Made by a program: the position numbers and the translations under genes. Below, one piece after another: positions 2,157 through 39,488 of a stretch of 64,000 nucleotides of DNA (positions are counted from its first letter, which is position 1; each line of letters starts with the position of its first letter). Origin of the DNA: Leucoraja ocellata (Eukaryota). Under the pieces are notes generated by a model, which was not told the origin of the DNA, ran no database searches, and worked only from the letters and a program-made list of their open reading frames with translations. The stretch is taken from contig JAWMAR010000021.1 in assembly GCA_036785375.1 (NCBI GenBank), positions 4,898,001 to 4,962,000 on the forward strand. Direction: 5' to 3'.

Positions 2157-2236
2157 GAGCTTAAGAATGCTGAAATAGCATTAAGAACACAAAAGATACC
2201 ACCAGGTCTTCAACATGAAAACACCGCACCAGCAGA
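2157..2236 (+). CDS. NUP58: NUP58 internal coding exon (ELKNAEIALRTQKIPPGLQHENTAPA)
   Basis: tcacAG acceptor and GTaagt donor; 80 nt, phase 0 to 2; peptide matches recalled vertebrate Nup58 ELKNAEIALRTQKTPPGLQHE. Confidence 0.95.
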
Positions 2237-6168: not shown

Positions 6169-6287
6169 CTATTTCAGGCAGCTGGTGGAACAATTTGAGG
6201 TTCAGTTACAGCAGTATCGACAGCAGATAGAGGAACTGGAAAATCACCTTGCTACGCAGGCTAACAGCTCTCACATGACTCCACAAG
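6169..6287 (+). CDS. NUP58: NUP58 coding exon, coiled coil (YFRQLVEQFEVQLQQYRQQIEELENHLATQANSSHMTPQ)
   Basis: gacAG and GTttgt boundaries; 119 nt, phase 2 to 1; joins previous exon as GA+C = Asp. Confidence 0.97.
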
Positions 6288-6684: not shown

Positions 6685-6767
6685 ATCTGTCTCTTGCAAT
6701 GCAGAAAGTATACCAGACATTTGTAGCTCTGGCTGCTCAACTTCAATCAATCCATGAAAGTGCAAAG
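6685..6767 (+). CDS. NUP58: NUP58 coding exon (DLSLAMQKVYQTFVALAAQLQSIHESAK)
   Basis: ctacAG and GTaaca boundaries; 83 nt, phase 1 to 0. Confidence 0.96.
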
Positions 6768-8874: not shown

Positions 8875-9073
8875 ATTCTAAGAGAGCAGTATCTTGGCTA
8901 CCGTAAGACATACTATGGTGATGCCACTGATGTCTTTGAAGCGAGGCGCGTTGAAACTAAGAAGTGGCAAAATACTCCACGTGTCACAACTGGGCCAACT
9001 CCCTTCAGCATACCAAATGCAGCAGCAGTTGCCATGGCTGCAACATTAACACAGCAGCAACAGCCTGCTACAG
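8875..9073 (+). CDS. NUP58: NUP58 coding exon (ILREQYLGYRK...KKWQNTPRVTTGPTPFS...TQQQQPATG)
   Basis: tttcAG acceptor, weak GTctga donor; 199 nt, phase 0 to 1; within ORF 8836..9096. Confidence 0.96.
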
Positions 9074-9096
9074 GTCTGAATGTCTTCAAGTTATAG
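9074..9096 (+). CDS. NUP58: Putative alternative C-terminus by donor read-through (GLNVFKL*), Nup45-like isoform
   Basis: In-frame GGT CTG AAT GTC TTC AAG TTA TAG; resembles recalled mammalian short-isoform end GLNAFKL; downstream AATAAA at 9402. Confidence 0.6.
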
Positions 9097-9863
9097 ATGA
9101 ATAGAGCTGAGACAAATATCTGGTTATACGATATAAACTTTCTAGTATACACATTTCTCTTTTGTCTTCCTGAACACATCTCAGTAGTCTTACTGCTGTA
9201 TTAGAAAGCACCCAAGACTTTCTTGTATCTTATTTTGTCACTTTTTTAAAGTTTTCTAAATTACTGATATCTGCATATTTAAAAAAAACTACTAATTTAT
9301 GGTAATACAGGATATATACAAAGCAATAATCTTAAAGCTGTAAAATACCTAATTTCTTAAAATTGGTAATTTAGAAAATGTGAAGTGACTTTTTATACTA
9401 TAATAAAGGTGACTAAGACTTTAGTTAGAAGTGACCTTGTGAGGCTTTGAATGTTGTTGAATCACTAAATTCTGAAGATAATTTGCAGAGAATGTAAATT
9501 AATTGTTAAGATTGATGTTATTTTGTTCAAAACAAAATGTTAAAATTTAAACAAGGATGACGTACATGGGTGAATTACAGATGCACATAGCTCTAAAATT
9601 GTTCTGGGTGAGATATTGCTTTGATTAACCTACAGAAAATAATAACTACTGAAGGATGATACAGATACCATATCTATTTTACAATGAGGTTCTTATTTCT
9701 TCATTTAATCATGGAAAACAGTATTGTATAATACGTTGGTATAATCAAACAAGCTGGAAGAAATTGCTTTAGCATAAAGTCCCTGTTTGGCACATTCCCA
9801 ATCTGAGATAAACATTGATCAGTGAGAGTTGGTCAGTTTTTCTACAAGAATATAATTTAAGAA

Positions 9864-10145
9864 TGTAGAGTTGCTGCCTTGCAGTACCAGAGAGTCAGGA
9901 CCAATTCTGACCTCGGGTGCTGTCTGTGTGGAGTTTGCACTTTCTCCCTGTGACCACGTGGTTTTCATCTGGGTGCTCCGGTTTCCTCCCACATCTCAAT
10001 GACATGCGGATTTGTAGGTAAAACATCCCAAGTGTGTAAGGAGTGGATGCGAAAGTGGGAAAACGTAGAACTAGTGTGAAGGATGATTGATGGTCGGAGT
10101 GGACTCAGTAGGTCGAAGGGCCCTGTGCTTAACTCTAAAACTAAG
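9864..10145 (+). mobile_element. V-SINE
   Basis: gtagagttgctgcc head, gggtgctccggtttcctcccaca core, cgaagggccctgtg tail. Confidence 0.85.
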
Positions 10146-12492
10146 CTCAAACAATCCAAGTCATCTGCTTTCACAACTCCTCTAACACCTTTGATAGTTT
10201 GTTACAATACACAACAGATCATATTCTCATCTTCGATTGTGCAAGTTGTTGACTAAATTGATGGGAAAATGTTGTTGTATAAAATATCCCTCAATAAACA
10301 ATGGTAGTTTTTCATCATGGTTGCTATTCCAAATTAAGATAGGATGTCTGGGGTAGAAATGTTCTATCATAATTTAAGTTTTAGTGAGATAAGCAAATAT
10401 AGTGAATGAAAACACCTTGATATTTTTTATGAAGGTGTAACAATAAAGTTTACATTAAGAAAGTTCTACAATATGTGATTAATTTAAAAATAAATGGAAT
10501 TTGACACAAAGTAAATTGTTTACAATAGGGTGGTAAAGGAGTAGGAAGTCAGTATTAGAACGTTGGAATTCTTTATTCTTACTCCATGGTATTCTATTTA
10601 ACATATCCGAAAACAGCATTTAAAATGCGCGTTTTATATTTACTAATCTCAGCCACAAAACATTTCTGTTTTGTACAGTGAATATTTATTGATGGCTCGC
10701 CTCTTCCCTCCTCTCCCACAACCAGTTACAATGTGTAAAGTTAAAAAATATGATTAGAGTGTAAACAAATTTGAAGAAGGAAGAACAGTGTATTTGATAT
10801 TATTAACCAAAATTAATAGCACTGTAAACATTTAAGTAAATTAATTTGTAAGATATTTGCAAACCGGGGCTGCTAGAAAAAAGTGCAGGTAAGTCTGTGC
10901 ACATTTCATGTGCTGTATTTTATGAGTATAAAACAATGTTTCTGCTTTCTGAAAGAGCAGCATTTGAATTGTTCCACTGAAATCGATTGCCAAAAATTAT
11001 TACTACTTCCCAGTATTGTAATATTCCAAACACCTACATGAAGTCTTTCAGTGTACACAAACGCGCAGTGCCGCAGTTGCCTTCTTTACAGACACTAGGT
11101 TACAACACTAGTTTGGTTATGAAATCAGTCTTTGTAAAATATATTATATAATACTGCATTATCTGTAAAACTCATGTTATAGTCATATATGTATCTGTCT
11201 CTTCATTGTTCTTTGATATCTATGATAAAGGAAGACAGTGTCAATTCCTTGGCATATATGGGCTGAATTTTTGAATAATGATCAATTTTTCTACTTAAAT
11301 CATCTTTTCATAAATGTTCCAATTAGTTTTGCAAATTTTGAAATAACATATGCTAGCCTTTCTTGTTTCTGTATTGGTAGCATATTTCGTTTTTAAGTTT
11401 GCCTGTAGTTGTGCAAGAATTGTGGACAGCTTTGAAATGAGGCCTACGTAGGTGCCTAAGATTGGACTGTCTCAGGATTTGATCCATAGTTTTCTCTGAT
11501 GTTTTCCGGCATTTCTTTGGCATAATTATAATTCTTTGCTTCTCTGCACCTTCCACATTCCCCTTTGACAATTAACTCTTCTAGAACATCATACTACCAA
11601 AAGCAATATGTTCTACCATTGCACAGGGCAAAATAAGTAGTGTGTTTGAAATGTGAAAGTGTGGATGTGTTAAACCTACATATGAAGTGTAAATTCAGTG
11701 GTGCCTTTTTCAAACTGCGCACGCATAGAAATTCACTTCTGGTTGTAACTGCCTTTAGAACCTGAATATTCCCTCCGTTTATTTAAAAAGTTGCCTAATA
11801 TCAAACTGTAGTGCACTAAAAGCAAGAATATGGCAGTTATGAATTAACAAAAATGAAAATTTTATTGTTGTGTTGATATGTAATTGAGTTGTTTCAAAAA
11901 CTAAACAATAAATTGAGATGTGAAAGATCTTATTGTCTTCTTATGTATTTTTGTTCTTTAATTATTGCTCAATTGATTCATACTTGAATGCAATGCGCAT
12001 GTAAAGTTTATTTAAATCTAAAACTGAGGCTATGTCGCAGAATGCAGGCGATTTGCTTACTTTTAAAAATAACATTTGGGACATATAACTATGCTGAATA
12101 AAGGGACTTTAGTGTGAACACAATTAAAGCATAAAACAAAATAAGCCACCAAAGTAACTGTAAGGAGAAGATTAAGTATGATTTGCTTTGGATTTATTTT
12201 GTTTCCCAACTACTGCTGAGTAGATGAATTGGCAAAAAAGTGTTTAAAACTTGAAGTAGCATAGATATGGATCAGTCTCTTTTTGTTTTTCAATATTTGT
12301 TCTAGATTCTAATTTGTTTTGGATCAGTCTAAGCTTGACCCACATACATTTGAAGACTTTGCCCATTATTTTTAAGAGTGGCTGAAATAAAATTCTCGTA
12401 TTGGAGAGTCATTTTATAAAATATATGCTGAAAACTATTTCTAAGTGTAATGGAAATTTTTGTCTTTTTCTTCTTAATTATTTCTGTATCAG

Positions 12493-12591
12493 GATCACAG
12501 CCAGCTTTGGGAGTTAACTTTGGAGTACCGTTCGCCTCAGGTATTGGCACTGGCTTGCAGTCAACTGGCTTAGGTTCTACAACACTTGGAG
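12493..12591 (+). CDS. NUP58: NUP58 FG-region exon (SQPALGVNFGVPFASGIGTGLQSTGLGSTTLG)
   Basis: Polypyrimidine tract with atcAG, donor GTacaa; 99 nt, phase 1 to 1. Confidence 0.95.
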
Positions 12592-18557: not shown

Positions 18558-18653
18558 GATTTGGAAATACTTCTGCCTTTGGAAGTAATACTTCAGGCAA
18601 CGCCTCATTTGGATTTGGATCAGCCACTAAACCCTCAGGAAGCCTCAGTGCAG
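18558..18653 (+). CDS. NUP58: NUP58 FG-region exon (FGNTSAFGSNTSGNASFGFGSATKPSGSLSA)
   Basis: tgtAG and GTttgt boundaries; 96 nt, phase 1 to 1; KPSGSLSAG conserved. Confidence 0.95.
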
Positions 18654-18761
18654 GTTTGTTGTAATTTTGTTTCTGTTAGTGGTGTGATGGTAAATAAGTG
18701 ATTTCAGATAGCTCATAGCCAGTGTAGCAGAAATCCATTGGGTATTCAGACATGATCGAGT

Positions 18762-25487: not shown

Positions 25488-25666
25488 GTTTTGGCAGCTC
25501 AACTACAACTGGATTTAACTTCAATAACCCTGGGATCACAGCGTCTGCTGGTCTGACCTTTGGTGTGTCCAATCCTTCAACATCAGGTCTTAGCAGCAAT
25601 CTTGTAGGGGGACAGCTCCTACAACTGAAGAAACCACCAGCCGGCAACAAGCGGGGCAAAAGATAG
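25488..25666 (+). CDS. NUP58: NUP58 last coding exon (FGSSTTTGFNFNNPGITASAGLTFGVSNP...QLLQLKKPPAGNKRGKR*)
   Basis: Long T tract then caAG acceptor; diagnostic C-terminus LLQLKKPPAGNKRGKR; stop TAG ends at 25666. Confidence 0.97.
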
Positions 25667-36840: not shown

Positions 36841-37678
36841 CTACCTGAAATTTGAAAAGTCAATGTTCATACAGCTGGGATGTAAACTACCCAAGCAAAA
36901 TATGAGGTGCTGCTCCTCCAATTTGCGGTGGGACTCACTCTGGCCATGGAGGAGCCCCAGGACAGAAAGGTCGGATTCGGAATGGGATGGAGAGTTGAAG
37001 TGCTGAGCCACCAGGAGGTCAGGTTGGTTAATGCGAACTGTGCGGAGGTGTTGGGCGAAGCAATCGCCAAGCCTGCGCTTGGTCTCACCGATGTAGAGCA
37101 GTTGACACCTAGAGCAGGGGATGCAATAGATGAGGTTGGAGGAGGTGCAGGTGAACCTCTGCCTCACCTGGAAAGATTCTTTGGGTCCTTGGATGGAGTC
37201 GAGGGGGCAGGTTAAACGACAAGTGTAGCATTTCCTGCGGTTGCAAGGGAAATTACCAGGGGGTGGTTTGGGTGGGAAGGGACAAATTGACCAGGGAATT
37301 ACGGAGGGAGCGGTCTCTGCGGAAAGCCGAAAGGGGAGGAGATGGGAAGATGTGGTCAGTGTTGGGATCCCGTTGGAGGTGGTGAAAATGTCAGAGGATT
37401 ATCTGTTGTATGTGACGGCTGGTAGGGTGGAAGGTGAGGACAAGGGGGACTCTGTCCTTGTTACGAGTGGGGGGATGGGGAGTGAGAGCAGAGTCACGTG
37501 ATATAGAAGAGACCCTGGTGAGAGCCTCATCTATAGTCGAAGAGGGGAATCTCCGATGCCCTGGTTTGGAATACCTCATCCTGGGTGCAGATGCGGCATA
37601 GACGGAGGAATTAGGAGTAGGGGATTCCTTACAGGAAGCAGGGTGGGAAGAAGAGTAGTCCAGATAGCCGTGGGTCAT
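36841..37678 (-). pseudogene. Penelope ORF C-terminal part (RT thumb plus GIY-YIG), inverted arm
   Basis: YLDYSSSHP, RVPLVLTFHP, LIYCIPCSRCQLLYIGETKR. Confidence 0.9.
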
Positions 37679-37689
37679 CCATTATTTTA

Positions 37690-39488
37690 AACTGCCGGCG
37701 AGACATCAACTACCTCAACTTCTTCACTCCCCTTACTCATTCTAACCCCCCCCCCCCCCTTCCCGAACGTACAGCCCTCCACTCACTCTGCAACAACCCA
37801 AACTGGGTGATGAAACCAGCCGTGGTAGTCTGGCGCGCTGATCTCTATCGCTCTGAGGTCAGACACCTCCTCCTACTTATCCTTGGACCATGATCCTTGG
37901 ACCATGACGAGCACCAGGCCATTATCTCAAGCACCATCACTAGCTTCATCACTTCCGGCTCCCTGCCCTCCCAAGCCTCCAACCTCATCGTTTCCCAGCC
38001 CTGCACGGCCCGATTTTACCTTCTCTCCAAAATCCACAAACCTGCCTGTCCTGGCAGACCCATTGTTTCTGTTTGTTCTTGTCTCACCGAACTTATTTTC
38101 ACATACCTCGACTCCATCCTATCACCCCTACCTACGTCGAAGATACCTCACACGCTCTTCGTCTCCTCCATGACTTCCGTTTTCCAAGCCCCCACTCTCT
38201 CACCTTCACCATGGATGTCCAGTCACTCTACACCCCCATCCCCCACCAGGAGGGTCTTCAAGCCCTCCGTTTCTTCCTTGACCGCAGAACCAACCAATCC
38301 CCGTCTACTGATAATCTCCTCTACCTAGCAGAGCTGGTCCTTACCCTCAACAACTTTTCCTTTGACTCCTCCCATTTCCTTCAAATCCAAGGAGTAGCTA
38401 TGGGCACGCGCATAGGCCCCAGCTATGCCTGCCTCTTTGTAAGGTACGTCGAATAATCCTTCTTCGTGGCATACCGTGGCCCTAGCCCCGAACTTTACCT
38501 CCGCTACAATGACAACTGCATCGGTGCTATTTCCTGCACCCATGCAGAACTCACTGACATCATCCATTTCATCCCTAACTTCCATCCGGCACTCAAATTC
38601 ACCTGGACCATTTCCAACATCTCCCTACCGTTTCTAGACCTCACTATCTCCATCGCAGGTAACTGACTACTGACCGACATCTACTACAAACCCACTGACT
38701 CCTAATTCCTCCATCTACGCCGCATCTGCACTCAGGATGAAGTGTTCCAAACCAGGGCATCGGAGATGTCCTCATTCTTTAGGGGGTTCCCCTCTTCGAC
38801 TATAGATGAGGCTCTCACGAGGGTCTCCTCTATACCCCGCAACTCTGCTCTCACTTCCCATCTCCCCACTCGTAACAAGGACAGAGTCCCCCTTGCCCTC
38901 ACCTTCCACCCTAGCAGCCGTCACATACAACAGATAATCCTCCGACATTTTCGCCACCTCCAACGGGATCCCACCACTGGCCACTTCTTACCATCGCCTT
39001 CCCTTTCGGCTTTCCGCAGAGGCCGCCCCCTCCGTAACTACCTGGTCAATTCGTCCCTTCCCACCCAAACCAACCCCTCCCCTGGTACTTTCCCTTGCAA
39101 CCGCAGGAAATGCTACACTTGTGGCTTTACCTCCCCCCTTGACTCCATCCAAGGACCCAAGCAGTCTTTCCAGGTGAGGCAGAGGTTCACCTGCACCTCC
39201 TCCAACCTTATCTATTGCATCCGCTGCTCTAGGTGTCAACTGCACTACATCGGTGAGTCCAAGCGTAGGCTTGGCGATCGCTTCGCCCAACACCTCCGCA
39301 CGGTTCGCATTAACCAACCTGATCTCCCTGTGGCTCAGCACTTCAACTCCCCCTCCCATTCTGAATCCGACCTTTCTGTCCTGGGGCTCCTCCATGGCCA
39401 GAGTGAGTCCCACTGCAAATTGGAGGAGCAGCACCTCATATTTCGCTTGGGTAGTTTACATCCCAGCGGTATAAACATTGACCTCTAA
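37690..39488 (+). pseudogene. Penelope RT plus GIY-YIG endonuclease ORF, frameshifted
   Basis: FYLLSKIHK...GRPIVS, TMDVQSLYT, GVAMGTRIGPSYACLF, YLRYNDN (degenerate YxDD), LPFLDL, LIYCIRC..C...YIGE.KR.L..RF..H. Confidence 0.9.

Follow-up and report, generated by a model that had tools for sequence, protein, structure and literature searches.

Short forms of Nup58 and the NUP58 locus of a skate

The secreted and membrane forms of the IgM heavy chain are the textbook example of intronic polyadenylation with a composite terminal exon. Among short forms of Nup58, the p45 cloned from rodents reportedly retains a portion of the C-terminal FG region. In passages of the literature on this protein, p45 is presented as a product of alternative splicing in which the N-terminal FG region and coiled coil are present (Hu et al., 1996, PMC2120945), Nup45 is counted at about 32 copies in purified rat nuclear pore complexes, against 48 for Nup58, and given a mass of 52 kDa predicted from its sequence (AAC82318; Cronshaw et al., 2002, PMC2173148), and a band of p45 size is labelled a proteolytic product in one study (PMC6371224). 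The rat Nup58 helical region, according to a passage of PMC4004597, comprises residues 239–415 and builds a 1:1:1 Nup58–Nup54–Nup62 trimer. Lists of pore components have included Nup45 for some 30 years, and these passages give it no function of its own; those on rat Nup45/p45 hold no description of intronic polyadenylation or of non-mammalian forms.

Our working hypothesis, which we regard as probable, is that cleavage at about position 11927, within intron 13 of the skate NUP58 gene, yields an mRNA with an unspliced exon 13 encoding a predicted short NUP58 of 472 residues, and that this arrangement is likely to be ancestral to gnathostomes. Both this kind of isoform and its mechanism have precedents; what is new is the age proposed for it, the evidence from skate, the mapped site and a possible split of 'p45' into two isoforms. 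Full-text literature searches, with supplements and most subscription journals outside their coverage, found neither conservation of the tail described below nor this poly(A) site; 'NUP58' combined with 'intronic polyadenylation' returned 0 papers, and a term search of PMC6679547, PMC8533070, PMC10218210, PMC11289042 and PMC6640030 located no passage on the end of the isoform. Genome-wide tables of poly(A) sites may already list the mammalian site.

The window, a 64,000 nt stretch of the Leucoraja ocellata genome (assembly of 3.44 Gb), contains NUP58 exons 10–16. Together with the upstream 20 kb it gives a 16-exon model of 589 residues, identical at 589/589 positions to the L. erinacea isoform X1 (XP_055492909.1). 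The product has an N-terminal FG region, a coiled coil and a C-terminal FG region, as expected of a NUP58 orthologue, and homologue matches carry PF15967. The exon at 8875–9073 matches skate nucleoporin p58/p45 at 100%, and a whole-assembly search found exon 13 once in its own genome. Intron 8, in the upstream sequence (locus L002, 8492–8587), has 96 nt, the other introns of the gene 348–6834 nt. Downstream of NUP58, the window also contains stop-free frames at about 36886–37212 (+) and 38706–39485 (+), which resemble pieces of a Penelope/GIY-YIG-type retroelement. The features of the locus are as follows.

2157..2236, + strand: NUP58 exon 10 (16-exon model)
6169..6287, + strand: NUP58 exon 11 (16-exon model)
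6685..6767, + strand: NUP58 exon 12 (16-exon model)
8875..9073, + strand: NUP58 exon 13, end of the helical region and linker ending PATG (model, homologues)
9071..9079, + strand: exon-13 donor, weak on the intron side (6/9 U1 matches, pyrimidine at +3)
9074..9096, + strand: read-through coding tail (G)LNVFKL and stop (frame; homologous tails in other species)
9097..11927, + strand: 2831 nt 3' UTR belonging to the short isoform, AT content 67% (RNA depth)
9402..9407, + strand: AATAAA named in the original prediction; no use seen, minor use conceivable
9865..10128, strand not assigned: SINE-like interspersed repeat within the UTR (29 other matches nearby)
11907..11912, + strand: AATAAA serving the intronic poly(A) site in use (UGUA upstream, 65% T downstream)
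11925..11929, + strand: cleavage/poly(A) positions, 566 nt before the exon-14 acceptor (5, 19 and 4 reads)
12493..12591, + strand: NUP58 exon 14, FG, long form only (16-exon model)
18558..18653, + strand: NUP58 exon 15, FG, long form only; some skate records lack it through skipping
25488..25666, + strand: coding part of NUP58 exon 16, FG and basic tail, stop (16-exon model)

Read-through of the exon-13 donor gives GLNVFKL and a stop ending at 9096, just as the original prediction had it. The same prediction called the donor weak, which holds for its intron side (1/4 matches at +3 to +6, with a pyrimidine at +3) but not within the gene, where it is not the weakest of 15: by a crude count of matches to the U1 complement, made with no trained model, the NUP58 donors span 5 to 8 and those of exons 14 (5) and 6 (5.5) score lower, while those of exons 8, 11 and 12 tie with it. 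Poor intron-side matches are found at all three of the last NUP58 donors. Read-through of the 15 donors would give between 1 and 47 residues, so that a read-through of seven is ordinary by itself; in the sequences compared, it is the match of the tail between species, not its length, that exceeds chance. The predicted short product has 472 residues and 49.0 kDa and the long form 589 residues and 60.1 kDa (computed). Like Nup45, the short form would retain the coiled coil and the FG region at the N-terminus; 123 C-terminal residues would be lost, among them the basic end KKPPAGNKRGKR and seven of the long form's 13 FG dipeptides.

A polyadenylated 3' end within intron 13

Four of 24 listed RNA runs were aligned to 9090–12540, a region that starts 3' of the exon-13/intron boundary. 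RNA beyond 9073, on which the original prediction depended, is present in skate: intron 13 is transcribed, with depth from 9090 to about 11927, and polyadenylated. The oligo-dT run X24 (organism A) has depth in 25/25 bins over 9090–11989, from 185 aligned reads of which 101 align only partly, mostly in the repeat, leaving about 84 non-repeat reads or roughly 2 RPKM. Depth is zero in the four bins of 11990–12453 in all four runs, and the RNA is therefore neither pre-mRNA nor the product of whole-intron retention. The single-cell run X22 peaks at 11758–11989 and provides 28 A-tailed reads, which end at 11925 (5), 11927 (19) and 11929 (4), 13–17 nt after the AATAAA at 11907; all come from this single run, and copies of one molecule are possible among them. 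As the genome has one A in the 10 nt that follow the cleavage position, internal priming is unlikely. The AATAAA at 11907–11912 has the most T-rich downstream stretch (65%) among eight candidate hexamers. The intron thus contains a site of non-templated poly(A) addition, preceded by a canonical signal and followed by a U-rich element, and in 4/4 runs the RNA ends there without continuing to the next exon. This places the polyadenylated 3' end of the intron-13 RNA 566 nt short of exon 14.

The poly(A) run X21 (organism E) has depth over 10714–11873 and none after, from about 16 reads, none of them in 9090–9785. Every first mate lies on the minus strand, as plus-strand RNA would give in a dUTP-type library; several letters differ, and the run is therefore probably from a relative. 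Contigs of run X1, the RNA origin of which is guessed, cover 9678–11836. Both X21 and X1 are without depth in the first 580 nt, and such holes in depth prove nothing. The first 48 nt of exon 14 have a depth of 0.45 in one run, which is too partial for an isoform ratio, and the table of read starts and ends lists no place for the intron-13 region. A loose end of X22 at 11895 presumably represents library adapter and was set aside as an artefact; read pile-ups at 9907–9940 come from other copies of the repeat and were rejected as a local signal. The repeat itself has 29 other matches of 67–91% identity, 21 in the window and eight in upstream loci. Over 9097–12500, Rfam gave 0 matches at E≤0.1, and Tandem Repeats Finder reported nothing beyond two trivial repeats.

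Conservation of the six-residue tail

Three homologue searches, with 120 matches listed of 1104, 1103 and 1159, together with three cluster look-ups and one profile search, yielded 630 proteins, 471 of which contain the end of exon 13. A tail that starts with L and stops within 30 residues follows in 54 of these 471 fetched proteins. It has six residues in 54/54 records, with L and K invariant, and fits the consensus L-[NSTD]-[ASTV]-[FY]-K-[LF]-stop in mammals, sauropsids, frogs and teleosts; LTAYKF occurs 25 times, LNAFKL 11, LSAFKL eight, LTAFKF four and LDAFKL twice, while LNSFKL, LTSFKL, LTTFKF and LTVFKF are each seen once. Named carriers include mammals (Aotus, Microcebus, Cervus, Choloepus), sauropsids (Pitangus, Phrynosoma, Gekko, Sphaerodactylus), frogs (Xenopus tropicalis, Hymenochirus) and fish (Albula, Coilia, Cyprinus, Scomber, Ophioblennius, Siganus). 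Because the searches were enriched for the tail, 54/54 measures its shape where found and not its prevalence; lineages with a decayed tail are under-sampled by such searches, and many of the 54 records are from close teleost relatives. The mammalian GLNxFKL-type tail anticipated in the original prediction is borne out by LNAFKL in Aotus, Microcebus and Cervus, and in the protein records the six-residue tail is common to gnathostome classes. The form of about 485 residues named in the original prediction agrees in length with the human gene, in which exon 13 ends at G479 and six further residues give 485 (computed); no human tail record was among those fetched.

Many tail carriers are gene predictions or single-exon open reading frames, which show the genomic frame only. 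Evidence of expression outside skates comes from the X. tropicalis RefSeq record NP_001025650.1, which ends LNAFKL, and from 15 Logan proteins of 472–498 residues that run from Met to tail on contigs of 1.6–5.7 kb. On five of these contigs fewer than 800 bases are left over, which could not accommodate 12 introns, and they thus represent spliced read-through transcripts, from fish. The tail appears in 0/62 shark, ray and chimaera records, so that cartilaginous fish are represented by this skate only; the sole lamprey record (P0462) has neither a PATG end nor a tail. Among 150 listed representatives of 50% clusters, one has the tail, a fish-type open reading frame, and with one record per cluster this is weak evidence of absence. 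In five further models the tail is the start of a sequence that continues by splicing. Four of the first 458 records have a different short end immediately behind exon 13 (WF, an empty end, and PSTLRCTDHCA twice).

Read-through of other donors behaves differently. That of exon 9 gives VILKCLW... in skate and VYQLMAILP in other records, and that of exon 15 gives GLL in skate and GLCVSA in bat, so in the sequences compared the read-throughs of introns 9 and 15 are unmatched between skate and other records. The eight types of substitution in the exon-13 tail all score at least 0 in BLOSUM62, for which random single-base changes give an expectation of about 0.04 (a rough product of 0.039, and a weak test). 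Taken with the unvarying length of the tail, this makes selection on it as a peptide likely. Given the matching six-residue end in bony vertebrates, the short-form arrangement is likely ancestral to jawed vertebrates.

The RNA could be real and the conservation could nevertheless belong to an RNA-level element controlling splicing or 3'-end formation, in which case the peptide would be a by-product and the RNA would mainly lower the output of full-length NUP58. The first two residues of the tail are fixed by its overlap with the donor, a UTR of such length with 14 ATTTA motifs can destabilise an mRNA, and the short protein is a predicted one; the weakness of the substitution test also leaves room for this explanation. 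We consider it improbable, as the residues vary at codon positions 1 and 2 (N/S/T/D, A/S/T/V, F/Y), so that the DNA is not frozen, while length, K and stop are constant in all 54 records and full-length open frames have been assembled from fish transcripts.

A second alternative, which is very improbable, is that the intronic RNA does not encode the tail, being either transcribed separately or joined as an alternative last exon at a cryptic acceptor. Compatible with such an origin are the start of the aligned region at 9090, beyond the exon boundary, the lower depth in 9090–9321 (1.7–3.3) than in 9322–9669 (6.5–8.7), 11 rows of loose ends outside those listed, the SINE-like repeat in the intron, and mammalian records with other ends after exon 13 (WF, DGW, VPSTLRCTDHCA). 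X24 depth, however, begins with the first bin and thus ahead of the repeat, every listed loose end 5' of 11895 lies within the repeat, and tail-bearing spliced transcripts occur in fish and frog. A rough search for cryptic acceptors told nothing, with 5/7 true acceptors below its cut-off.

Least probable of all is that the short form ends at the proximal AATAAA, which is present at 9402 as originally claimed and is followed by six TGT/GTT words, with X22 depth of 0.5–0.6 at 9322–9553, but is one of seven in intron 13 and of a kind that chance alone produced in 51% of 5000 shuffled versions of the 334 nt following the stop, while X24 depth continues without a drop after 9437, no poly(A) end at 9402 is among the loose ends listed, and the A-tailed reads lie instead about 2.5 kb further on. 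A minor poly(A) site near 9402 may exist.

The predicted short protein, p45 and other C-terminal variants

We therefore return to cleavage at about 11927 as the preferred origin of the short form. In this mechanism exon 13, which we infer to be linked to the upstream exons, would run unspliced into a 2.8 kb 3' UTR, and a middling donor would compete with a strong poly(A) site near the far end of a 3.4 kb intron. Splicing to exon 14 first would give the 589-residue long form, and cleavage first would give the short form. Messenger RNAs whose stop lies in the terminal exon are spared by junction-dependent decay, and the short mRNA, with its stop so placed, should therefore escape it. The arrangement resembles that of the IgM heavy chain, in which a donor also competes with an intronic poly(A) site and a short intron-encoded tail is gained as a C-terminal domain is lost; in NUP58, by contrast, 2.8 kb separate the donor from the poly(A) site, which is just 566 nt short of the next exon.

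The short protein would keep the whole helical region that binds Nup54 and Nup62; rodent exon 13 ends near residue 467 (computed), beyond the helical region at 239–415. It would replace the long form in the central-channel trimer, bringing six FG dipeptides instead of 13 and no basic tail, and would lower FG density in the channel. The simplest function would be a tuning of the FG content of the central channel. The effect of importin-β contact with NUP58 reportedly runs through the C-terminal FG part. Residues 523–589 of Nup58, in the region lost from the short form, serve as an FG probe in binding assays in a passage of PMC10881386, and NUP58–importin-β contact is reported in a passage of PMC6101944 (citing Koh and Blobel, 2015) to affect the conformation of the channel. 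With the poly(A) site and donor mapped, the short form could be removed and the long form left untouched, making a role in channel composition or permeability testable. That skate and mammals share a six-residue end encoded in an intron argues for selection on a short NUP58. It is tempting, if doubtful, to go further and suppose that the switch, beyond removing FG repeats, replaces the conserved basic tail with a selected C-terminal hydrophobic–Lys–hydrophobic motif ([FY]-K-[LF]-COOH) that has bound a specific partner or set turnover since the first jawed vertebrates, and that this form, rather than the cloned rat p45, is the ancestral second type of central-channel subunit; if true, the Nup62 complex of vertebrates would come in two kinds, with intronic polyadenylation as the means of tuning them.

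The skate form and rat Nup45/p45, as the latter appears in the passages cited above, are alike as short products of the Nup58 gene that arise by alternative RNA processing and keep the N-terminal FG region and coiled coil. They differ in mass, the 52 kDa given there for the rat protein exceeding the approximately 48.8 kDa computed for the rodent exon-13 read-through form by about one FG exon. The exon-13 form may work like Nup45, and the heavier cloned rat p45 may be another isoform, which suggests that the name 'p45' may cover two different isoforms. A longer short form exists in a bat record (P0036), which ends in exon-15 read-through. Database isoforms NP_001025650.1/Q5BJ32, A0A2K5D2H4, A0A8C5V746 and CAK6951873.1 share the position, length and motif of the tail and the loss of exons 14–16, with the ends LNAFKL, LSAFKL or LTAYKF (X. 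tropicalis, Aotus, Microcebus, Scomber); they are, in contrast, scattered and mostly automatic records, and the skate tail has V at its third position.

Variation at the NUP58 C-terminus is common and includes skipping of exon 14 or exon 15, the bat end LCVSA and the skate ends KVVCFQL and ASAITSPILLPALT (P0036, P0001, P0004); skate exon-15 read-through gives GLL-stop only (window 18558–18665). About 20 records, mammalian where named (P0037, P0040, P0071, P0089), have an alternative last exon after exon 15 with an end like ETNE[LVI]GRKI[QL]F, for which no match was seen among the shark and ray ends printed. Nine of 143 more distant representatives (P0465, P0471, P0481, P0482, P0492, P0493, P0507, P0566 and P0581) end PLG or PLGK and do not have the basic last segment; one of these is a Lingula isoform X2, of which X1 is longer, and invertebrates may have short NUP58 forms of their own through read-through of a different donor. 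The Choloepus p58/p45-like record P0112 (468 residues) combines the short tail with many private substitutions. It may have arisen by retrocopying of the short mRNA, and this, if true, would prove germline expression of that mRNA in mammals.
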